Assembly: GCF_003944705.1 (NCBI RefSeq)
Contig: NZ_RWIS01000011.1
Span: 155,253 to 187,252, forward strand
DNA from: Hymenobacter metallilatus
GTDB taxonomy: Bacteria > Bacteroidota > Bacteroidia > Cytophagales > Hymenobacteraceae
Length of the DNA stretch: 32,000 nucleotides
Reading direction: 5' to 3'
Shown: in pieces, positions 11,208 through 21,818 of the stretch
Layout of the letters: each line of letters starts with the position of its first letter
How positions within the stretch are numbered: position 1 is the stretch's first letter
Program-made: the position numbers and the translations under genes
Notes under the pieces: model-generated
What the model was told of the DNA's origin: nothing
The model's input: the letters and a program-made list of their open reading frames with translations, nothing else
Databases searched by the model: none

Positions 11208-14200
11208 CTAATGCGCCAGCACGGCTTGCTGCCGCTGGGGGTGCAGTTGCGGGTCGTCGCCGTAGTGGGTGTGCTGGGCGCGGTAGGCGCGCTCGAAAAT
11301 CAGGGGGAAGATGAACAGGGTGAGGACGGTGCCGGTGATGAGGCCGCCGATAACCACAATGGCCAGGGGCTTGGAGGTTTCACTACCGATGCCGGTGCTA
11401 ATAGCAGCGGGCATGAGGCCGATGGTGGCCATCAGGGCCGTCATGACCACGGGGCGGACGCGGCTGGTGACGCCCTCGTGGATGCTGCGGTCCAGGCTGA
11501 GTTTACGCACCATGTTCTGCTTGAACACCGATATCAGAATCACCCCGTTCTGGATGCAGATACCGAACAGGGCGATAAACCCGATACCGGCCGAGATGCT
11601 GAAGTTGGTGTGCGTGATGAGCAGGGCCGCAATGCCGCCGATGATGGCAAACGGCACGTTCAGGAGCACCAGCCCGGCATCTTTCAGGTTGCCGAACAGG
11701 ATAAACAGGATGAAGAAGATGAGGGCCAACGACACCGGCACCACCTGCGTGAGGCGCTGGGTGGCGCGGCGCTGGTTCTCGAAGTCGCCGGTCCATTTCA
11801 TGCTGTAGCCTTTGGGCAGGCTTACCACGGCATTCACCTTCTTCTGGGCTTCCTCGATAGTGCTGCCCATGTCGCGGCCCCGGATGCTGAACTTCACGGC
11901 GGCGAAGCGCTGGTTGTCGTCGCGGTAAATGAGCGAGGGGCCGTTGACGTCGCCGATGGTGGCAATTTCGGAGAGGGGAATGGTGGTGCCGTTCTGGGTG
12001 GGCACCATGAGGGCGGCAATTTCCTCGGGCGTCTGACGGAACTGCTCCTGGTAGCGTACCCGGATGGGGAATTTCCGCTCGCCCTCGTACATCTGCGAGG
12101 CCTGCTTGCCGCCCACGGCCATTTCCAGCACCGCGTTGGCGTCGGCTTTGCTCACGCCGTACTGGGCCATGCGCTGCTCATCCAAATCCACGTGCAGTTC
12201 GGGCTGACCGATGTTGCGGAGCACGCCCAGGTCGTCGATGCCTTTTACCTTTTTGAGGATGCCGTACACCTGGCGGGCTTTTTCCTCCATCAGCTTCAGG
12301 TCGGTGCCGTAAATCTTCACGGCAATGGAGCCTTTCACGCCCGAGGCGGCTTCCTCCACGTTGTCGGTGATGGGCTGGGAGAAGTTAAAATCCACGCCGG
12401 GGAAGCGGTTGAGCTTTTCCTTCATGTGCTCAATCAGGGCTTCGCGCTTATCCTTGTGCTTCATTTCGGCCTCCACCGCGGGGGTGTGCTTGAGCTGCAC
12501 CAGAAACTCGTTGTTGTAGAAGCCGGTGGGGTCGGTGCCGTCGTTGGGGCGGCCGGTCTGGCTCACCACGTCGCCTACCTCAGGGAACGACAGGAACACC
12601 CGGCGCATCTCGTTGCAGAGCTTGTTCGACTCATCGAGGCTGATGCTCAGCGGCAGCTGGGCCCGCACGTAGATGGAGCCTTCGTTCAGCTCAGGCAGAA
12701 ACTCAGAGCCCAGGAAATGGAAGGCGCCCATGCCCAGCACTACGGCCACGGTGGCTACCAGCAAACTGGCGGTTTTGCGGGCGTAGGTGAACGAGAAGAA
12801 CCGCTGGGCGCCCTTGTTGATGCCGCGCACAAAGAAGTTGTCCTTCTCCACCACGTTCTTTTTCAGCAGGATGGAGGTAAGTACCGGTACCAGCGTGAGC
12901 GTGAAGATGAGCGCGCCGAGCAGGGCAAAACCCAGCGTCCAGGCCAGGGGGCTGAACACCTTGCCTTCCACTTTCTCGAACGAAAAGATGGGCAGCAACG
13001 CGGTGATAATGATGGCCTTAGAGAAGAAAATGGCCTTGCCCATGTCGCGGCCGGTTTTCTTGATGAGGCCCAGCTTGGCCAGCTTGTTGAAGCGCTCCAT
13101 GCCCATCTTGTGGGCCCGGTGGTCGAGGGCCACGAAGAGCCCTTCCACCATCACCACGGCCCCGTCGATGATAATGCCGAAGTCGATGGCGCCCATGCTG
13201 AGCAGGTTGGCCGACATGCCCTTCAGCCGCAGACAGATGAACGCAAACAGCAAGGCCAGCGGAATAATCACCGACACGATGATGGTGGTGCGCCAGTCGG
13301 CCATGAATACGAACACGATAACCGTCACCAGAATAATGCCTTCCAGTAGGTTGTGGATGACCGTTTCGGTCGAGAAGTCGATGAGCTGCTGCCGGTCGTA
13401 GAAGGTTTGAATCTTCACGTCGGAGGGCAGAATCTTCTCGTTCAGGTCGGCTACTTTATCCTTGAGGCGGGCAATAACTTCGGAGGGGTTTTCGCCCTTG
13501 CGCATCACCACAATGCCTTCCAGCACGTCGTCGTTCAGGCCCCGGCCCACTTTGCCAAACCGCGGCAAGGCCGATTCGTGCACGATGGCCACGTCCTTCA
13601 CCAGGATGGGCGCCCCGTTCACGTTCTTGATGACGGTGTTGTTGATGTCGTTGCTGTTGTTGAGCAGGCCAATGCCGCGCACCACGTAGTTCTGCTGGCC
13701 CTCGTTTATCACGTCGCCTCCCACGTTGATGTTGCTGCGCTGGATGGCGTTGTAGAGGTCGAGTGGGGTGAGGCCCAGGTCCTGGAGCTTGCCGGGGTTC
13801 ACGCTGATTTCGTAGTCCTTCACCTCGCCGCCGAAGCTGTTCACGTCGGCCACGCCGGGCACGGCTTTCAGGTTGCGCTCCACCACCCAGTCCTGCAGGG
13901 TTTTCAGCTCGCGGGTGGTTTTGTCCTTGCTCTTGAGGGTGTAGCGGAAAATCTCGCCGGTGGGGCCGTAGGGCGGCTGCACGTCGGGGTCGGCGCCTTC
14001 GGGCAGGTCGGCCTGGCTGAGCAGGTTGTTCACCTGCACCCGGGCAAAGGCATCGTCCACGCCATCATCAAAAATCACCTTCACTACCGACAGCCCAAAC
14101 AGGGTGGTGCTGCGGATGCTGGTTTTCTTCTGCACCGGGTTCAGCGCAATTTCGATGGGGGCCGTCACGAACTTCTCAATCTCCTCGGCCGAGCGGCCCG

Positions 14201-14369
14201 GCCACTGCGTGATGATGGTAATTTCGGTGTTGGTAACGTCGGGGAAGGCCTCGATGGGCGTATTCCGGTAGCTCATCACCCCGGCCACAATGACCACAAA
14301 AGTCATCAGGAACACGAAGCCCCGGTTTTTGAGCGAAAAGGCAATAATGCCCTGGATGAATTTGTTCAT
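11208..14369 (-). CDS. czcA: CusA/CzcA-family heavy-metal efflux RND permease
   Basis: 1053 aa with a 12-TM RND architecture. The N-terminus (MNKFIQGII.FSLKNR....L....V.AG..S....PIEAFPDVTNT.I.IITQWPGRSAEE.E) is typical of HME-RND pumps. Confidence 0.95.
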   Translation of the reverse strand: MNKFIQGIIAFSLKNRGFVFLMTFVVIVAGVMSYRNTPIEAFPDVTNTEITIITQWPGRSAEEIEKFVTAPIEIALNPVQKKTSIRSTTLFGLSVVKVIFDDGVDDAFARVQVNNLLSQADLPEGADPDVQPPYGPTGEIFRYTLKSKDKTTRELKTLQDWVVERNLKAVPGVADVNSFGGEVKDYEISVNPGKLQDLGLTPLDLYNAIQRSNINVGGDVINEGQQNYVVRGIGLLNNSNDINNTVIKNVNGAPILVKDVAIVHESALPRFGKVGRGLNDDVLEGIVVMRKGENPSEVIARLKDKVADLNEKILPSDVKIQTFYDRQQLIDFSTETVIHNLLEGIILVTVIVFVFMADWRTTIIVSVIIPLALLFAFICLRLKGMSANLLSMGAIDFGIIIDGAVVMVEGLFVALDHRAHKMGMERFNKLAKLGLIKKTGRDMGKAIFFSKAIIITALLPIFSFEKVEGKVFSPLAWTLGFALLGALIFTLTLVPVLTSILLKKNVVEKDNFFVRGINKGAQRFFSFTYARKTASLLVATVAVVLGMGAFHFLGSEFLPELNEGSIYVRAQLPLSISLDESNKLCNEMRRVFLSFPEVGDVVSQTGRPNDGTDPTGFYNNEFLVQLKHTPAVEAEMKHKDKREALIEHMKEKLNRFPGVDFNFSQPITDNVEEAASGVKGSIAVKIYGTDLKLMEEKARQVYGILKKVKGIDDLGVLRNIGQPELHVDLDEQRMAQYGVSKADANAVLEMAVGGKQASQMYEGERKFPIRVRYQEQFRQTPEEIAALMVPTQNGTTIPLSEIATIGDVNGPSLIYRDDNQRFAAVKFSIRGRDMGSTIEEAQKKVNAVVSLPKGYSMKWTGDFENQRRATQRLTQVVPVSLALIFFILFILFGNLKDAGLVLLNVPFAIIGGIAALLITHTNFSISAGIGFIALFGICIQNGVILISVFKQNMVRKLSLDRSIHEGVTSRVRPVVMTALMATIGLMPAAISTGIGSETSKPLAIVVIGGLITGTVLTLFIFPLIFERAYRAQHTHYGDDPQLHPQRQQAVLAH

Positions 14370-15678: not shown

Positions 15679-15864
15679 ATTGGTTGAGGATGAAGGATTA
15701 AAGGATGAGGGATAAAGGATTGAAGGATGATGGATAAAGGATGTAGGAGTTGAAAAAACCAAGTGGCGCAGTCCCTCTACTCGTATGGCAACTTCTTGAT
15801 AGGGAAGTGCAAAGGCCCTTAGTCCTTCATCCCTTATCCTATATCCTTCATCCTTTATCCTACT
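15677..15864. repeat. GGAT-rich strand-skewed palindromic element, copy 1 (OMF-adaptor1 spacer)
   Basis: An 82-nt run without any C (15677-15758), made of GGATGAAGGAT/GGATAAAGGAT-type units. The opposing G-free run (15823-15864) includes ATCCTTCATCCT (15843-15854), the exact complement of 15687-15698. Confidence 0.9.
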
Positions 15865-17140
15865 GAAACACCGGGCGGCCCACGGCGTAGTTGAGTTGTT
15901 CGAAGGCGCGCACCCGGTTGGCGCGCAGGTTGTTGAGCTGCACCAGGTTGTTCTTGTAGCTCTCGTAGAAATCCAGGAACTCCACGACGGTGAGGTTGCG
16001 CTTGGCATAGCTCTCGTCAATGCCCTTCATCAGGCGGTCGAAGTCGGAGGTTTCCCGGTCGGTGCCCTGGTAGAGCTGGTCGTTCTGGCGGGCCAGGCGC
16101 CAGGCTTCCTGCACGTCGTTCTGCACCTGCAGCTGCTGCTGGCCCAGCTGGGCCTTGCTCACCTCAATCTGGTTCTGGGCCGTGCGGATATTGCCCTGGT
16201 TGCGGTTGAACAGGGGCACGGCCACGCCCAGCGTGAGGGCGTTGTAGTTCTGGATGTAGTTGCCGGCCCGGTCATACACGTAGCCCACGGCCAGGTCGGG
16301 GGTAGCCAGGGCGCGCTGCAGGCGCAGGTTCTGGGTTTGCTGCTGCACGGCGGCCTGGCGGGCCTTCAGGTCGGCGCGGTTCACCTGGGCCGAATCGATG
16401 AGCTGCGCCTCGGTGCGGTTGGTCAGGCTCAGGGCTTTCAGGCGGTTCTGGTCGGCCTGGGGCAGGTAGTAGGCCCCGGTGGTGTCGCGCATCAGGGTGC
16501 GCAGGTCGGCCTGCTCCGAGGCAATGTCGTTGAGCAGGGCCTGGCGCTCGTTGCGGAGCTGAAACAGGAAGGCTTTTAGTCGGATGACCTCTTTCAGGGC
16601 AATGTTGCCCTTGTCGTATTGGCCCTGGTACAGGCTCACGGTGCGCTGGAAGCTGGCTACTTCCTTGTCGTACACGCCCACGCTCTGCTGCTTGAAATAC
16701 AGGTCGTAGAAGGTGCTGCGGAGCTGGTAGCGCAGGGTGCGCAGCAAATCCTGAAAGGTAAACTGCTCCACCAGCGCATTCTGCTGGGCCACGCTGGCGG
16801 CGGCTTTGCGGCGGCCGGCTATGGCAAACAGCTGCTGCACCTGCACAATGGAGTTGCCGGTTTTGGTCACATCCAGCACCTTGTGGGTGAACTGGTTGTA
16901 GGCGTTCTGTTCGATGGAAACCGTGGGGTTGTCCCAGAGCCAGGCTTGCAGAATCTGGGCCTCGGCCGCCGATACGTTGTAGCGCTGGGCCAGCAGATTC
17001 AGGTTGTTCTGGATGAAGCGCTGTTCGGCGTCGGAAAGGGTAAGCCGCACCGTGTCGCCGGCTAGGGGAGCGGCCGTGGCGGGGCGGGTAAGAAGGCTGA
17101 GCAGCAGGGCCGCCATCAGCACGAAAACAGAGCGTTGCAT
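15860..17140 (-). CDS. czcC: TolC/CzcC-family outer-membrane efflux protein
   Basis: ATG at 17140 gives the signal peptide MQRSVFVLMAALLLSLLTRPATA; the track ORF starts at a TTG at 17167. Two OEP-type repeats rich in Q/L/A/N coiled coil. It sits in operon position upstream of the adaptor and pump genes. Confidence 0.88.
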   Translation of the reverse strand: MQRSVFVLMAALLLSLLTRPATAAPLAGDTVRLTLSDAEQRFIQNNLNLLAQRYNVSAAEAQILQAWLWDNPTVSIEQNAYNQFTHKVLDVTKTGNSIVQVQQLFAIAGRRKAAASVAQQNALVEQFTFQDLLRTLRYQLRSTFYDLYFKQQSVGVYDKEVASFQRTVSLYQGQYDKGNIALKEVIRLKAFLFQLRNERQALLNDIASEQADLRTLMRDTTGAYYLPQADQNRLKALSLTNRTEAQLIDSAQVNRADLKARQAAVQQQTQNLRLQRALATPDLAVGYVYDRAGNYIQNYNALTLGVAVPLFNRNQGNIRTAQNQIEVSKAQLGQQQLQVQNDVQEAWRLARQNDQLYQGTDRETSDFDRLMKGIDESYAKRNLTVVEFLDFYESYKNNLVQLNNLRANRVRAFEQLNYAVGRPVFQ

Positions 17141-17164
17141 AACCGGATTCGGTGGTTGGTTATG

Positions 17165-17223
17165 CAAGAGTACGCCCCCCGTATTAGGGCTGAATTAGAG
17201 GTAGATTAGAAACGGATTAGAGC
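17165..17223 (-). promoter_or_regulatory. Candidate activator-dependent promoter: four phased YTCTAAT direct repeats plus a -7-like TACTCTTG box
   Basis: ATTAG cores (plus strand) start at 17183, 17194, 17205 and 17216, in exact 11-bp steps. TACTCTTG (17172-17165, minus strand) has one mismatch to the Bacteroidetes -7 consensus TAnnTTTG. The ATG lies 25 nt downstream. Confidence 0.55.
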
Positions 17224-17392
17224 TGAAAAATTTTCTCAGAAAGGTCGTTTTCGGCTGATAAACGCAGGTTTTGGTAGTTGGCGCAACGGAAAAAACCGGC
17301 CGCTGCGCCAACTCCCGCTCCGAGGTCCACATGGCCCGCGCCACCCACAGCCCGGACTCAGACAGTTCATCGGGGTGTAAACCGTAGCCCAT

Positions 17393-17476
17393 AGTAGCGC
17401 GAACTTTGTAGTTCGCGTCCCCGAGCCGTCCGAACGATTGTCGTTCCGGGACGCCAACTACACAGTTCGCGCTACT
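17393..17476. repeat. Double-hairpin palindromic element in the adaptor2-OMF spacer
   Basis: AGTAGCGCGAACTTTGTAGTTCGCGTCCC pairs with GGGACGCCAACTACACAGTTCGCGCTACT at 27/29. The left arm is itself a hairpin, CGCGAAC-tttgta-GTTCGCG. Confidence 0.8.
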
Positions 17477-17510
17477 GCGCCCTGCCGGTGCACTGACCGG
17501 AATAGCGGGC

Positions 17511-18590
17511 CTAATCATTGAGCTCCTTGTAAATAAGCAGCGGGTTGCCGGTGACGACCTGCTCGCCCGGTATTATGCCGCTGCGCACGAAGCTCACGCC
17601 GCCCACCGTGGGGCCGGTTTCCACCGCTCGGGTTTCCACCTGCCCCGATTCCTGCAGCACCAGCGCGTAGCGGCGGCCGTTGGCAAATACCAAGCTGCCG
17701 GCTGGCACGGTGGGCAGCTGCTCGGGCAGAGTGCGGGTGAGCTGCACCTGGGTGTACATGCTGGGCTTCAGCAAGTGGCCGGGGTTGGGAAGCCGCACCC
17801 GCACCTGCAGGCTCTTGCTGGTGGCGTGCAGCAGGTTGAACACCTTGTCAACCTGCCCGGTGAATACCTTATCTGGGTAAGCCAGCGTCCGGATTTCGGC
17901 CGGTACGCCCACCCGCATGCCGGCAATATCGGCCTGGTACACGTCGGCCAGCACCCACACTTCATCCAGGTTGGCCAGGGTGAACAGGGCATCCACCTGC
18001 CCCGGCTCAAACTGCATCCCGGCGCTGACATGCTTGGCGGTGATGGTGCCCGCCAGCGGGGCCCGCACCACGTACCGCTCCTGCGAGGCCCCCAGCACCG
18101 CCTGCTGCTGCTGCACCCGGTGGGTTTCGGCCTGGGCCGTGCGCCACGCTGCCCGGGTCTGGGCCAGCTCCCGCTCCGAGGCCATGCCATCGGCGTGCAT
18201 TAATTCCGTAGCCGCCAGCTCCCGGCGGGCAGTAACCAGGTTGATGGCGGCCACCTGGGCTTCCTGGGCCAGCCCCGCCACCCGCGTGCTACGTACCACG
18301 GCCAGCACCTGGCCCTTGCTCACCTCGTCGCCCAGCGTCACGGGCACCGACTCCACTACGCCCCCGGCCACCGGGTACACGGGAGCCGTGCGGTCGGCAT
18401 TGGTAACTACCTGTCCACTGAGCTTTAGGTGGGTTTGCACCGGGGCCAGGCGCACGGTATCGGTGGTGAGGTTAGTGAGTCGGGGAGCAGCGGCGGGCGT
18501 TACGGTCTCGGCGGCTTCTTCGGAGCAGCTGGCCAGGCCCAGGCCGGAGGGTAACAGCAGCAGGCTGGCGAAGTGAAATAATCGGGTCAT
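17511..18590 (-). CDS. Second efflux RND periplasmic adaptor (lipoprotein), paralogue of adaptor 1
   Basis: ATG at 18590 gives MTRLFHFASLLLLPSGLGLASCS (lipobox). It shares blocks with 14578-15678 (GQVLAV, ASERE, YPDK.F.G..DKVFN, LKP.MY.Q, C-terminal ELND). Confidence 0.9.
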   Translation of the reverse strand: MTRLFHFASLLLLPSGLGLASCSEEAAETVTPAAAPRLTNLTTDTVRLAPVQTHLKLSGQVVTNADRTAPVYPVAGGVVESVPVTLGDEVSKGQVLAVVRSTRVAGLAQEAQVAAINLVTARRELAATELMHADGMASERELAQTRAAWRTAQAETHRVQQQQAVLGASQERYVVRAPLAGTITAKHVSAGMQFEPGQVDALFTLANLDEVWVLADVYQADIAGMRVGVPAEIRTLAYPDKVFTGQVDKVFNLLHATSKSLQVRVRLPNPGHLLKPSMYTQVQLTRTLPEQLPTVPAGSLVFANGRRYALVLQESGQVETRAVETGPTVGGVSFVRSGIIPGEQVVTGNPLLIYKELND

Positions 18591-18614
18591 GGGGTAAGCA
18601 ACACAAGTGAGGTG

Positions 18615-18673
18615 CAAGCTTACGCCGCCGATATTAGGACCCGGTTAGAGCCGCATTAGAAACGGATTAGAGC
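18615..18673 (-). promoter_or_regulatory. Second copy of the phased-repeat promoter (upstream of adaptor 2)
   Basis: Cores start at 18633, 18644 (GTTAG), 18655 and 18666, in 11-bp steps. -7-like TAAGCTTG at 18622-18615. The distance to the ATG is the same as in copy 1. Confidence 0.55.
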
Positions 18674-18733
18674 GTGAGTTTTTGATGAATTTTCTTCCGA
18701 ATTCTGAGAATAGAGGTCGGAATAGGGAAGGAT

Positions 18734-18782
18734 AGAACGTCATGCAGAGGCACAGCCGAAGCATCCCGCGTGCTGATGTTGT
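18734..18782. repeat. Solo arm of a GTCATyCTGAGC-family element
   Basis: AGAACGTCATGCAGAGG..CCGAAGCATCCCGCGTGCTGATGTTG aligns with the left arm of 29456-29507. I saw no partner arm. Confidence 0.6.
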
Positions 18783-18798
18783 TGGTTCGTAGGATGGG

Positions 18799-18949
18799 CA
18801 GAACGGTGTAGAGACGCAACACTTTGCGTCTCGTCGTTGAACGACACGGTAATGTAGCGTTTGAATAACGTTAGCAGCGACGTGGTAACGCACAATCCAA
18901 ACAACGTCAGCAACGACGAGACGCAAAATATTGCGTCTCTACATCGTGC
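18799..18949. repeat. GAGACGCG double-hairpin element, copy 2
   Basis: The first 47 nt match 10622-10668 at 44/47. The stems read GAGACGCA/TGCGTCTC, a compensated G-C to A-T change relative to copy 1. The right hairpin is at 18918-18939. Confidence 0.9.
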
Positions 18950-18967
18950 AATAACTCAACCTTTCTG

Positions 18968-20317
18968 CTACAATTCCACCTCTACCACCGTGCCCTGGCC
19001 CGGCCGGGAGCTGATGTGCACCTCGCCGCCGTGCAGCTGAATGATTTTGCGGGCCAGCGGCAGCCCCACGCCGTGCCCCACCACCTGCCGGGCGTTATCG
19101 GCCCGGAAAAACGGCTGAAATACCTGCGGCAGGGCTTTTTCGCTGATGCCGATGCCGTGGTCCTGCACCCGGATGTAACGGCGGCCAGCCCGGTATTCCA
19201 GCTGCACTTCCACCGGCTGGTCGGCGGAGGAGTATTTCAGGGCGTTGTCCAGCAGGTTGGTGAGGGCCCGGCTCAGCAGCTGGCGGTTGCCCTGGATTTC
19301 GAGAGCCTCGGCATCCTCCGGCAGCTGCCCGAACGTGAGCTGCACCCGGCGGCGCTGCTCCGGCAGCACCGCTTCCCGGGCTTCGGCCAGCAGCTCATCC
19401 AGCCGGATTTCGTCGCGGGCCCCGGTATTGGTTTGGGTAAGGTCGAGCAGGTTGTTGATGAGCAGTTTCAGCTGTTGCAGCTCGTGCAGCACCGAGGCCA
19501 CGCCTTCCCGGTACGCGGCCGGCTCCCGCTCCCGGTTCAGCAGCACCTGCAGCTCACCAATGGTGGCCGTGAGGGGCGTGCGCAGCTCGTGCGAGGCATT
19601 GCTGACGAAGGTGCGCTGCGTTTCGAAGCCTTCCTCCAGGCGCTCCAGCATGCGGTTGAAGGTGCGGGCCAAACGGGTTATTTCGTCCTGCTCGTGGCTG
19701 ATGCCTTCACTCACGCGCAAGTGCAGATCCTGGGTGGTGATGCGGTCCACCTGGTCGTTGACACGGGCAATCGGAGCCAGGGCCTTCCCGGCAAACACCC
19801 GGCCGGCCACGTATATCACCACCAGGCTTGCCACGAAGATGCTGGCCAGAATCAGCACCAAATGCTCCAGCCGGGCTGCGCCGGAGTGGTTTTCCGCGGC
19901 AGCCACAATAACGAACTGGCCCTGATTATCGGTGTAAAATAGCCCGATAGCCTGCCGGTTGCCCAGCGTAAAATACACTTCTTTCTCAGTGATAATCCGC
20001 GTCAGCATCCGGTCGGAAATGGCCACGCGCGTATCCTGCTCAATGAAGCGGGGCTGCAGCTTATCGTCGTAAATCTGTAGTACCTCGCCGGTGAGCGTAC
20101 GCAGATAGCGGCGCTGAAACTCCCGGAATGCCTCGGCCCGCAGCTCGTCCTGCTCCAGAAACACGTAACCCGTCACCTCAGCCCGGTCGCGCAGGCGCTG
20201 GTGAAATTCCTCGTGGGTGTAATCGGCCTGCAGCAGGTAGATGGTGGTCATCACCGCCAGCAAAATCACTGCCACCACGCCCACAAACAGCCACGTCAAT
20301 CGGTTCCGGATGGTCAT
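18968..20317 (-). CDS. Sensor histidine kinase (two TM, periplasmic domain, HAMP, HisKA, HATPase_c)
   Basis: TM1 LTWLFVGVVAVILLAVMTTIYLL, TM2 LVLILASIFVASLVVIYVAG, H-box FVSNASHELRTPLT, N-box LLDNALKY, G-boxes DHGIGI and GHGVGL. Confidence 0.93.
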   Translation of the reverse strand: MTIRNRLTWLFVGVVAVILLAVMTTIYLLQADYTHEEFHQRLRDRAEVTGYVFLEQDELRAEAFREFQRRYLRTLTGEVLQIYDDKLQPRFIEQDTRVAISDRMLTRIITEKEVYFTLGNRQAIGLFYTDNQGQFVIVAAAENHSGAARLEHLVLILASIFVASLVVIYVAGRVFAGKALAPIARVNDQVDRITTQDLHLRVSEGISHEQDEITRLARTFNRMLERLEEGFETQRTFVSNASHELRTPLTATIGELQVLLNREREPAAYREGVASVLHELQQLKLLINNLLDLTQTNTGARDEIRLDELLAEAREAVLPEQRRRVQLTFGQLPEDAEALEIQGNRQLLSRALTNLLDNALKYSSADQPVEVQLEYRAGRRYIRVQDHGIGISEKALPQVFQPFFRADNARQVVGHGVGLPLARKIIQLHGGEVHISSRPGQGTVVEVEL

Positions 20318-20553
20318 GGAGGAGTGGTGAAGTTGTGAAAGGTGAAGTTGTGAAGGGCAAGCAAAGGACCTAAAAGAACGTCATTCTGAGCGAAGCCGGA
20401 GGCGAAGTCGAAGAATCTCTACCGCACTAGTAATCCTGGTCGTGAGGCAACGAAGCGGTAGAGATTCTTCGACTTCGCCTCCGGCTTCGCTCAGAATGAC
20501 GTTCCTTTTCTCACTTCTCACTTCTCACTTCTCACTTCTCACTTCTCACTCCT
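20318..20553. repeat. Composite palindromic element filling the RR-HK spacer
   Basis: 40-nt C-free run with a 15-bp tandem repeat (GTGAAGTTGTGAAAG / GTGAAGTTGTGAAGG, 20327-20356). Perfect 50-bp inverted repeat 20376-20425 / 20455-20504. (TTCTCAC)x6 at 20508-20549 lies inside a 52-nt G-free run and overlaps the RR stop codon. Confidence 0.95.
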
Positions 20554-21223
20554 GGGCCCGCAACACGTAGCCCATGCCCACCACCGTGTGAATGAGCTTG
20601 CGGGAGAAGGGCTTGTCCACTTTGTTGCGCAGGTAGTTCACATACACATCCACCACGTTGGAGCCGGCGTCGAAGGAGTCCTCCCACACGTCGGCGGCCA
20701 GCTCGGCGCGGCTGAGCACGCGGCCGGGGTGGCGCAGCAGCAGCTCCAGCAGCCCAAATTCGCGGGCGGTGAGCTTGAGCGGCTGCCCGGCCCGCGTCAC
20801 GGTTTTGGCGGCCGAGTCCAGTGTCAGGTCCTCAAAGCTGAGGGCCGAGCCCTTAGCCTGCTGACCGCGCCGCCGCGTAAGGGCCCGCACCCGGGCCACC
20901 AGCTCCGGAAAATCGAAAGGCTTTACCAGATAATCGTCGGCCCCGCCGCCAAAGCCGTGCAGCTTGTCCTGGGTGGTGCCCAGGGCCGTGAGCAGGAGCA
21001 CCGGCGTCTGCTGGTCCTGCGCCCGGATGGCTTCCAGTACCTCCAGCCCGCTGAAATAGGGCAGAATCACGTCCAGAATAATCAGCTCGTAGGAGTGGGA
21101 GAGGGCCAGCTGCCGCCCAAAGCGCCCATCGTAAGCCACCTCCACCTCAAATCCTTCTTCTTCCAGCCCCCGCTTTATAAACGCCGATACTTTGGGCTCA
21201 TCTTCAACCAGCAGAATTTTCAT
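20546..21223 (-). CDS. OmpR/PhoB-family response regulator (receiver plus winged-helix DNA-binding domain)
   Basis: MKILLVEDE, phospho-acceptor context LIILDV.LP, K in YLVKPF, and a C-terminal trans_reg_C block (LT.REF.LLELL......VLSR..L...VW........NVVDVY...LR.K.D). Confidence 0.95.
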   Translation of the reverse strand: MKILLVEDEPKVSAFIKRGLEEEGFEVEVAYDGRFGRQLALSHSYELIILDVILPYFSGLEVLEAIRAQDQQTPVLLLTALGTTQDKLHGFGGGADDYLVKPFDFPELVARVRALTRRRGQQAKGSALSFEDLTLDSAAKTVTRAGQPLKLTAREFGLLELLLRHPGRVLSRAELAADVWEDSFDAGSNVVDVYVNYLRNKVDKPFSRKLIHTVVGMGYVLRAQE

Positions 21224-21476
21224 GGGGAAATGGTTGAATGGGTGGATTGTTGAATGGGTGAACTGTCATCCTGAGCATGTCGCGCATCAAGCGAGGACGA
21301 AGGAACTTATAACGGCAGAACGGCTGGTGGCGGAACGGAAGGTATGCTGAACTAGGCAAACGTGGTCAGGTCCTTCGTCCTCGCTTGATGCGCGACATGC
21401 TCAGGATGACAGATTTTCTTAAATCAGCTATCCATCCGTTCAACCACCCAACCATCCACCTACCTAGCCACCCACC
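21224..21476. repeat. Composite palindromic element between the TPR gene and the RR gene
   Basis: 39-nt C-free run (21224-21262) with TTGAATGGGTG twice. Perfect 42-bp inverted repeat 21263-21304 / 21371-21412 (CTGTCATCCTGAGC...). The right flank is CCAC/CCAT-rich and G-poor up to the TPR stop codon. Confidence 0.95.
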
Positions 21477-21818
21477 CTAGTCCTCGTCCTCGTAATCCAG
21501 ACCCAGCAGCTGGTTCAGGGCTTGCTGGATTTCACTGGCGGCGTGCAGCTGCCCGGCTTTGCGGGCCACGCTGAGGCCTCTGCGGTAAACTTTTTCGGCT
21601 TCTTCGGGCTTTTCCAGCTGTTGCAGCATCTTGCCGGCGTGGTAGTACGTACCCACGTAGTCCGGATGCTCGTCGAGTAGTTTCTGGTAGTACATCATGG
21701 CCCGTTCCGGCTCCGTGGCCCGGTATTCGGTGGCCAGCGCGTAGATGGTGAATGCGTCGGTAGGATCATCCTGGTAGAAGACCAGGAGTTGTTGCAGGCG
21801 GCTCGGCGCAGTTTCCAT
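21477..21818 (-). CDS. Small tetratricopeptide-repeat protein
   Basis: ATG at 21818 (METAPSRLQQL..). TPR-like A/Y/L spacing (YALATEY......A..YYQKLL...P.YVGTYYHAGK). Confidence 0.7.
   Translation of the reverse strand: METAPSRLQQLLVFYQDDPTDAFTIYALATEYRATEPERAMMYYQKLLDEHPDYVGTYYHAGKMLQQLEKPEEAEKVYRRGLSVARKAGQLHAASEIQQALNQLLGLDYEDED

Follow-up and report, generated by a model that had tools for sequence, protein, structure and literature searches.

Phased TTCTAAT repeats as a putative operator of an OmpR-family response regulator at two efflux promoters of Hymenobacter metallilatus

Introduction

In a 32-kb window of Hymenobacter metallilatus DNA (the window being the whole stretch that was analyzed, to which all coordinates refer), a heavy-metal efflux locus lies wholly on the minus strand, and two of its promoters, here called P1 and P2, each carry four copies of a short direct repeat. 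The locus raises the question of which protein reads these repeats and whether that protein activates or represses the genes behind them. In Bacteroidota, sigma-A recognizes -33 TTTG and -7 TAnnTTTG elements instead of the -35 and -10 elements, and few operators of transcription factors, and hardly any geometries of activators, have been defined in this phylum. No published description of the motif, of this two-component system in Bacteroidota, of Bacteroidetes heavy-metal two-component operators, or of efflux regulation in Hymenobacter was found in the literature searched, which mostly did not include subscription journals. On the evidence given below, we consider it probable (at roughly 0.8) that two 61-nucleotide (nt) modules are activator-dependent promoters, in which the four phased half-sites form a putative operator of the OmpR-family response regulator (RR) encoded 1.9 to 3.3 kb upstream.

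Results

Two promoter modules with four cores in an 11-bp register

The elements on which the argument rests are as follows.

17183..17220, minus strand: P1 array of four CTAAT cores (17216-17220, 17205-17209, 17194-17198, 17183-17187) in an 11-bp register
17165..17172, minus strand: P1 -7-like box, TACTCTTG, beginning exactly 10 nt past the last core
18633..18670, minus strand: P2 array of four cores (18666-18670, 18655-18659, 18644-18648 [CTAAC], 18633-18637) in an 11-bp register
18615..18622, minus strand: P2 -7-like box, TAAGCTTG, 10 nt past the last core
20546..21223, minus strand: OmpR-family RR, the candidate binder, with REC and winged-helix Trans_reg_C domains and recognition helix SNVVDVYVNYLRNKVD

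Read on the minus strand, the first module (17223-17163) is GCT CTAAT CCGTTT CTAAT CTACCT CTAAT TCAGCC CTAAT ACGGGGGGCG TACTCTTG CA, and the second (18673-18613) is GCT CTAAT CCGTTT CTAAT GCGGCT CTAAC CGGGTC CTAAT ATCGGCGGCG TAAGCTTG CA. The initial annotation had reported four cores in exact 11-bp register in both promoters, 47 identical positions out of 61, and mismatches gathered in the spacers. The register was borne out in both copies, a recount gave the same identity, and 13 of the 14 mismatches fell outside the cores, the sole core change being in copy 2, whose third core reads CTAAC and not CTAAT. The similarity of the modules breaks off abruptly outside GCT...TTGCA, and the spacers within each array are unlike one another.

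The pattern CTAAT-N6-CTAAY-N6-CTAAY-N6-CTAAT matched the window exactly twice and was not matched in any of 100 dinucleotide-preserving shuffles; a chance origin of the arrays is excluded. CTAAT itself is scarce in the window (17 copies on both strands versus 30 expected), and 7 of these 17 copies lie inside the two arrays, as do the only two occurrences of TTCTAAT. The half-site of the two distal repeats, judged from sequence comparison, is 7 bp long, TTCTAAT, which corrects the first reading of the repeat; the distal pair of P1 is (C/T)TCTAAT-N4-TTCTAAT.

Conservation of the arrays in Hymenobacter

The comparison set comprised about 200 related loci overall (L numbers denote its members), and the Hymenobacter loci were picked via RR orthologues of 71 to 89% identity and not via the motif. 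The gene order RR, histidine kinase (HK), four cores, outer-membrane factor (OMF), periplasmic adaptor (MFP), and RND permease was found in H. tenuis, H. chitinivorans, H. cellulosivorans, H. arizonensis, and H. aerilatus, and the same four-core layout was found on a Logan contig carrying an RR that NCBI names for an H. tibetensis plasmid. H. negativus has RR, HK, two cores, and MFP, and the metagenome contigs L129, L130, and L133 (RR 76 to 80% identical) likewise have the array after the kinase gene. An array of two or four cores directly followed the kinase gene in all 10 Hymenobacter-type loci in which an RR-HK pair was present and the downstream gap was covered, and the P1 array was kept in the orthologous OMF promoters of at least eight Hymenobacter species. 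When the two 380-nt intergenic regions were compared by BLASTN, conservation between species was confined to the last 60 to 100 nt, which hold the array, the -7 box, and the leader.

Alignment of orthologous promoters had been suggested as a check of whether cores are conserved while spacers drift. When 12 Hymenobacter promoters were aligned without gaps, the information content was 1.95 bits per position in the cores and 1.18 in the spacers; the first spacer was partly conserved because the half-site of the two distal units is TTCTAAT.

The initial annotation had also argued that the likeness of P1 and P2 is not due to recent duplication. A P2-position MFP2 gene or array was found in H. telluris (L017), H. 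pini (L050), and contig L129, and the H. telluris and H. pini copies share the CTAAC third core and a GTA(A/G)GCTTG box; L129 carries a P1-like as well as a P2-like array, and its second array has four perfect CTAAT cores and no CTAAC. Since P2 has its own orthologues in other species and the adaptors MFP1 and MFP2 are only 45% identical, the idea that P2 is a recent copy of P1 was rejected. The two modules appear to be old paralogues, with P2 predating the split of at least three species, and their likeness would therefore reflect constraint rather than recency.

A two-core relic was observed directly after the kinase gene of H. tenuis (L001, 11176-11215), where TTCTAATCTGGCTCTAAT plus ACCGCTGGCG-TAGACTTG resemble the proximal half of P2. 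No MFP2 gene lies behind it, and the relic was probably left over when MFP2 was lost.

Co-occurrence of the arrays with homologues of the response regulator

The RR is 100% identical to the H. metallilatus protein at NCBI. It has the two domains of its family by Pfam (PF00072, E = 2.5e-26; PF00486, E = 7.1e-26), and its closest relatives in the PDB are DrrD, PrrA, and PhoP. Its partner is the following gene.

18968..20317, minus strand: sensor HK with HAMP, HisKA, and HATPase_c domains and two predicted transmembrane segments, the latter judged by eye from the N-terminal sequence

The pattern CTAAT-N6-CTAAT-N6-CTAAY-N6-CTAAT was scanned for in one genome per species and gave at least 120 loci, which served as examples only and not as frequencies, with tandem repeats as an internal control; H. 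metallilatus was not among the matches listed. Among those listed, 98 were simple, near-perfect 11-bp tandem repeats in unrelated organisms and 22 had diverged spacers. A homologue of the window RR (38 to 96% identity) was present in the same 8-kb block in 15 of the 22 diverged-spacer arrays listed versus none of the 98 tandem repeats listed (P = 4e-14), and in these cases a kinase gene was usually present too. The full layout of RR, HK, array, OMF, MFP, and RND recurred in a Bacteroidota metagenome-assembled genome (MAG) (L045; RND 62% identical) and in two Chryseobacterium genomes (L088 and L096; RND 57 to 59% identical).

The predominance of perfect 11-bp tandem repeats in unrelated taxa among the matches listed, together with the multi-copy TCTAAT repeat families of some Bacteroidales, would fit a reading in which the arrays are nonfunctional, whether as a replication-slippage minisatellite, a mobile-element remnant, or a leftover of segmental duplication. 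We regard this as highly improbable. The arrays do not look like a simple or dispersed repeat family, since their spacers differ from one another and the window has only two copies; moreover, it is the cores that stay conserved between species and the spacers that drift, the arrays keep a fixed position with respect to the -7 box, and P2, whose adaptor is only 45% identical to MFP1, predates the divergence of at least three species. The initial annotation had named the occurrence of such arrays in many unrelated intergenic regions as a finding that would speak for another repeat family. In about 150 kb of Hymenobacter loci, arrays were found at the expected promoter positions only.

The Bacteroidales elements (in Mediterranea, Bacteroides, and Proteiniphilum) occur in several copies per genome, each with at least four and usually at least five TCTAAT repeats at 11-bp spacing and, immediately behind them, inverted ATTAGAG copies (L028, 6210-6285; also L029, L057, L101, and L113; and L009, L018, L107, and L117). 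No close homologue of the two-component system adjoined any of them; L018 has only a 33%-identical RR about 5.6 kb away. They could be mobile-element ends or belong to another regulon.

In the reverse sampling, 80 metagenome loci (523 kb) were chosen via the RR protein (47 to 80% identity), and up to two mismatches were allowed in the arrays. Four-core arrays were present in 16 loci at 11-bp spacing, and none were present at spacings of 8, 9, 10, 12, 13, or 14 bp. They took two kinds of position, either directly after the kinase gene or 100 to 125 nt upstream of the RR gene on the opposite strand. With fully covered loci and three or more cores counted, arrays were confined to RRs with the helix xN..DVY.[NSR]Y[LV]R (14/33) and were found in 0/13 loci with other helix types, such as TNxVEVYVNILRKK (P = 0.004). 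In five of the seven array-less loci of the right helix type that were inspected, the kinase gene was directly followed by a CTAAT site that had two cores or was degenerate; several of the inspected loci showed the two-core form TTCTAAT-N4-TTCTAAT there. The TT before the two distal cores, which lay outside the search criterion, was present in 15 to 16 of the 16 arrays. The rule derived from these data is TTCTAAT-N4-TTCTAAT-N6-YTAAY-N6-CTAAT-N10-TAnnTTTG.

These results bear on the possibility that another factor, an OmpR-family paralogue or an unrelated protein, binds the array and that the adjacency of the two-component system is incidental. Hymenobacter genomes encode many OmpR-type regulators, one locus (L125) has a second one beside the adaptor gene, and some arrays lie away from any such two-component system (L114, L033, and L035). 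The second regulator of L125 has a different helix, SNYIDVHVRNVRKALA, however, and arrays co-localize with RR homologues from Hymenobacter to Chryseobacterium, Chitinophagaceae, and Bacteroidales in a manner that depends on the helix type, so that we hold this alternative to be improbable. The same co-occurrence and helix dependence support the RR and HK as the likely regulators of the arrays, as the initial annotation had proposed. Its view that helically phased direct repeats represent OmpR/PhoB-family architecture is likewise in keeping with the exclusive 11-bp spacing, the winged-helix RR nearby, and the conservation of the arrays with it. An autoregulatory array was looked for upstream of the RR gene and of the tetratricopeptide repeat (TPR) gene, and none was found.

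The strong four-unit array of L114 (H. norwichensis) lies on the minus strand from 4120 and has three TTCTAAT repeats and one CTCTAAT, 70 nt upstream of an NAD-dependent epimerase/dehydratase gene; the 8-kb block holds no homologous two-component system and no RND operon. It may be a distant regulon member, reminiscent of the envelope-modification genes that are controlled by PmrA. Outside Hymenobacter, Chryseobacterium, and L045, arrays precede other genes (L033, 3210-3313; L035, 2244-2281; L039, L103, L060, L083, and L070). Among the genes so placed are those for universal stress proteins (Usp) and TPR proteins (Chitinophagaceae and a Bacteroidales MAG), for a type IX secretion system (T9SS) polysaccharide deacetylase, for a C-N hydrolase, and for a P-type cation ATPase; in a further case, a TonB-dependent receptor gene and an MgtC-like gene form a divergent pair, and MFP and RND genes come after the MgtC-like gene. 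The regulon thus varies from one lineage to another.

A fixed register between the last core and the -7 box

The 12 Hymenobacter promoters all had exactly 10 nt from the end of the last core to a box that agreed with TAnnTTTG at five or more of its six specified positions, and the P1 -7-box segment GTACTCTTGCATA was invariant in seven species. The 10-nt offset was also found in L045, L016 (Paraflavitalea), L039 (a Chitinophagaceae MAG), and L070, as well as in 11 of 17 regulator-sampled metagenome arrays. Four Bacteroidales promoters had a distance of 21 nt (L048, L083, and both arrays of L033), and one of 32 to 33 nt was found in L088, L096, and L035, each of which has an extra in-phase core behind the four that matched; in the two Chryseobacterium promoters among them (32 nt), this extra core sits 10 nt before the box. 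The last core thus lies 10 nt (or 10+11n) from a TAnnTTTG-like box, the fixed core-promoter register that is expected of a class II activator, and such strictness would be a signature of class II activation.

The initial annotation had instead stressed the identical core-to-ATG geometry of the two copies. In both copies, the ATG (17140 and 18590) does lie 43 nt from the proximal core. As the constrained quantity, however, it was rejected, since orthologous leaders vary while the core-to-box distance is invariant; the equality is partly coincidence, because orthologous leaders differ by 1 to 2 nt. The absence of TTTG at the -33 position, also reported there, was confirmed in P1 and P2 and extends to their orthologues. 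A sigma-70 promoter scan, which is uninformative for Bacteroidota, gave no match and one weak terminator-like site, under shuffle expectation.

The position of the array is of consequence for the sign of regulation. It covers about -23 to -60, a stretch that includes the normal -33 position, and the same protein might therefore act at the same sites as a repressor that covers the -33 region, with de-repression on signal. OmpR-family proteins can repress from such positions. The example of MtrA has been discussed (PMC7380067). For repression, overlap alone would suffice, yet the register is strict (10 nt or 10+11n) across Bacteroidota classes and to a Clostridium -10 hexamer, and the lack of a -33 TTTG here and in the orthologues, with an imperfect -7 box, marks a weak, activator-dependent promoter. 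Repression is unlikely on these grounds, if somewhat less so than binding by another factor, and promoter anatomy argues for activation.

Four TTCTAAT-type repeats at 11-bp spacing were also observed in Clostridium (L021, 1738-1775; L061, 2287-2324), ending 10 nt before TATTAT or TATAAT; these hexamers were spotted by eye, as the box scan excluded sigma-70 hexamers. The arrays lie upstream of a DUF4342 gene; behind it come an RR gene, whose product is 41% identical and has the helix TNVVDVYIRYLRSKIDD, and a kinase gene. Both the half-site and the geometry may thus reach into Firmicutes.

The efflux locus and its candidate signal

In minus-strand order, the locus consists of RR, HK, the P2 module, MFP2, the P1 module, OMF, MFP1, and the RND permease, and the flanking genes are as first described.

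17511..18590, minus strand: MFP2, an extra CzcB-like periplasmic adaptor lipoprotein behind P2
15860..17140, minus strand: OMF (OEP), the first gene behind P1
14578..15678, minus strand: MFP1, a CzcB-like adaptor with a lipoprotein signal and likely start MNRLL...
11208..14369, minus strand: CusA/CzcA-family heavy-metal RND permease (TIGR00914) with the transmembrane segment 4 (TM4) motif DFGIIIDGAVVMVEG

The permease passed the cut-off of TIGR00914 (929.8 versus 701.45 bits), and its TM4 motif DFGIIIDGAVVMVEG is of the divalent-cation type in Nies' classification. The 480-amino-acid (aa) MFP1 open reading frame (ORF) of the mechanical listing, with a TTG start at 16020, is probably too long; from the OMF stop to the likely MFP1 start there is a gap of about 180 nt (15679-15859). 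A 107-aa ORF at 17195-17518, which overlaps the P1 array, was rejected as a gene and is considered spurious because it had no Pfam match and its cross-species similarity was limited to a C-terminal stretch over conserved promoter DNA.

The best model for the RR was the heavy-metal two-component model TIGR01387, but its score of 254.9 bits lay under the cut-off of 279.2, and the HK likewise matched the heavy-metal kinase model TIGR01386 best, yet with 208.5 versus 292.55. No obvious richness in metal ligands was seen in the predicted periplasmic segment of the HK. The pump type and the family affinities point to divalent metals as the candidate signal, which is our best guess.

Leader repeat and intergenic hairpins

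Further features surround the two modules.

17224..17246, minus strand: A/T-rich tract ctgagaaaatttttcag upstream of the P1 array, moderately conserved (alignment consensus)
17138..17164, minus strand: P1 leader inverted repeat CATAACC-N13-GGTTATG, whose 3' arm holds the OMF start codon (17140-17138)
17393..17476, no strand assigned: hairpin-forming inverted repeat with 32-nt arms, between MFP2 and P1
18803..18947, no strand assigned: hairpin-forming inverted repeat with 37-nt arms, between the HK gene and P2

The A/T-rich tract may be an UP-like element. The leader repeat reads CATATCC-N12-14-GGATATG in eight Hymenobacter P1 promoters; in the window, both sides of one pair are changed (T>A with A>T), and a U-G pair occurs in the H. 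telluris repeat. The repeat is absent from P2. Depending on where transcription starts, it could be an RNA hairpin that sequesters the start codon, or a second operator.

Long inverted repeats were observed in every intergenic gap (17393-17476, 18803-18947, 20372-20508, and 21263-21412), with arms of 32 to 54 nt that are 91 to 98% complementary, and one of them sits in the gap that separates the RR gene from the HK gene. Hymenobacter species differ in the length of this gap (21 to 325 nt), a variation that suggests the insertion of REP- or MITE-like elements. The inverted repeat at 18803-18947 may be a terminator or insulator, and hairpins upstream of both modules could insulate the units from read-through. 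No Rfam family matched in 16900-21600.

Discussion

The sequence and its comparison with related loci show phased direct repeats, an adjacent winged-helix RR, the co-inheritance of the two, a fixed promoter register, and a missing -33 element. Several observations nevertheless weigh against reading the modules as metal-responsive promoters activated by this RR. RR and HK score just under the NCBI heavy-metal cut-offs, which weakens the case for metal sensing. The -7 boxes carry one mismatch (CTTG instead of TTTG), and an array at about -23 to -60 that overlaps the -33 region makes repression possible in principle. Among distant homologues, three or more cores stand at the expected places in only 14 of the 33 fully covered loci; L132, whose RR is 76% identical, has neither a kinase gene nor an array nearby; and the arrays of L114, which stands before an epimerase gene, and of L033 and L035, which stand before TonB-receptor, MgtC-like, and P-type ATPase genes, lie far from any such RR and possibly belong to a paralogue.

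On activation by the RR, which we favor, the steps that go beyond the DNA are modeled on PhoB, OmpR, PmrA, and Mycobacterium PhoP. The HK would phosphorylate the RR on an envelope or metal signal, with divalent cations as the best guess. Dimers of phosphorylated RR would then bind head-to-tail on one face of the DNA, as conservation of the sites and the behavior of PhoB and OmpR suggest, occupying the better-conserved distal pair TTCTAAT-N4-TTCTAAT first and, cooperatively, the weaker proximal pair YCTAAY-N6-CTAAT thereafter. The proximal monomer, ending exactly 10 nt upstream of the -7-like box TAnnCTTG, would by that position take the place of the absent -33 element and may recruit RNA polymerase through sigma-A region 4 or the C-terminal domain of the alpha subunit (alpha-CTD). 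P1 would drive OMF, MFP1, and the CzcA-like RND permease and P2 would drive MFP2, so that both units answer one signal.

The closest parallel in architecture is the Pho box of Escherichia coli PhoB, itself an OmpR/PhoB-family winged-helix regulator. The Pho box (pstS; structure 1GXP) has 11-bp direct repeats that end 10 bp upstream of the -10 hexamer. Like the arrays described here, its repeats run head-to-tail with about 7 conserved and about 4 variable bp; strong promoters have two boxes, and hence four repeats; the upstream promoter element is replaced by the array, which stops 10 bp short of the downstream one, which is the -10 element in E. coli and the -7 box here. The half-sites differ (CTGTCAT in PhoB versus TTCTAAT), Pho targets are phosphate genes whereas those in the window are efflux genes, and the window promoters are of the Bacteroidota -33/-7 type. 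Moreover, the window RR is not PhoB, scoring 182 against a cut-off of 296.2 for TIGR02154 and 166.7 against 270 for the Bacteroidota PhoB model NF053854.

By sequence, the RR is closest to the CusR/CopR/AgrR/HprR group (47% identity to E. coli CusR). As in the proteobacterial heavy-metal systems, the regulator genes adjoin a heavy-metal RND operon and the site has a type II activator position. The recognition helices are three positions apart (CusR DVAVKRLRGK versus DVYVNYLRNK in the window RR), and CusR-type boxes are inverted repeats (TGACAA-N2-TTGTCA, AAAATGACAATTTTGTCATTTT, before cusC), whereas four direct repeats are present here. The AgrR box is the inverted repeat ATKACA-N4-TGTMAT (6-4-6) (PMC7380067). 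Its half-site ATKACA (ATTACA) resembles ATTAGA on the opposite strand here, and the palindrome was absent from 17140-17330 and 18590-18970. The RR thus shares the adjacent RND operon with the CusR/CopR/CzcR family but neither its curated score range nor its inverted-repeat operator.

The PmrA/BasR box, CTTAAT-N5-CTTAAT, is a further relative, and PmrA promoters usually have one dimer site. It shares with the arrays the 6-5-6 direct-repeat build and the orientation upstream of the promoter, and its hexamer CTTAAT is very similar to TCTAAT; the PmrA-DNA structures 4S04 and 4S05 are among the structural relatives of the RR, and the third core of Chitinophagia-type arrays is TTAAT. There are four repeats here versus one dimer site, however, the regulon is different, and the RR, with 166 bits against a PmrA cut-off of 330, is no PmrA orthologue. 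The direct-repeat motif of Clostridioides difficile RR_1586, DRTTAAGNWWW (PMC6222199), differs from the arrays. In spacing, in the nearby RR and its co-occurrence, and in promoter register, the arrays thus appear to fit a tandem direct-repeat operator of the OmpR/PhoB family.

The mechanism proposed here is textbook, and the value of the finding lies in the specific code and its breadth and not in a new principle: half-site code and promoter register are apparently undescribed and, as far as sequence comparison can tell, widely conserved in Bacteroidota. More tentatively, at a little under even odds, we suggest a cis-regulatory code shared across Bacteroidota, in which an RR subfamily with the helix xN(V/I)xDVYxNY(L/V)RNK reads TTCTAAT in an 11-bp register and engages polymerase 10 nt (plus whole turns) upstream of the -7 box. 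If true, this would be the first sequence-level rule for class II activation at Bacteroidota -33/-7 promoters, and, given the same 10-nt offset to the Clostridium -10 hexamer, the contact geometry of regulator and sigma would be older than the divergence of sigma-A promoter types. The regulons would be lineage specific: that of Cytophagia and Flavobacteriia would include metal efflux, that of Chitinophagia Usp and TPR proteins, and that of Bacteroidia MgtC-like, P-type ATPase, and TonB-receptor genes.

The TTCTAAT rule, which is testable, connects one two-component system with an efflux pump of the CzcA type in a bacterium described from lead-zinc ore. With its help, regulons of this two-component family could be predicted in hundreds of Bacteroidota genomes and metal- or stress-responsive reporters could be designed, and the rule makes it possible to ask whether OmpR-type activators touch sigma-A of Bacteroidota in the way that PhoB touches sigma-70.

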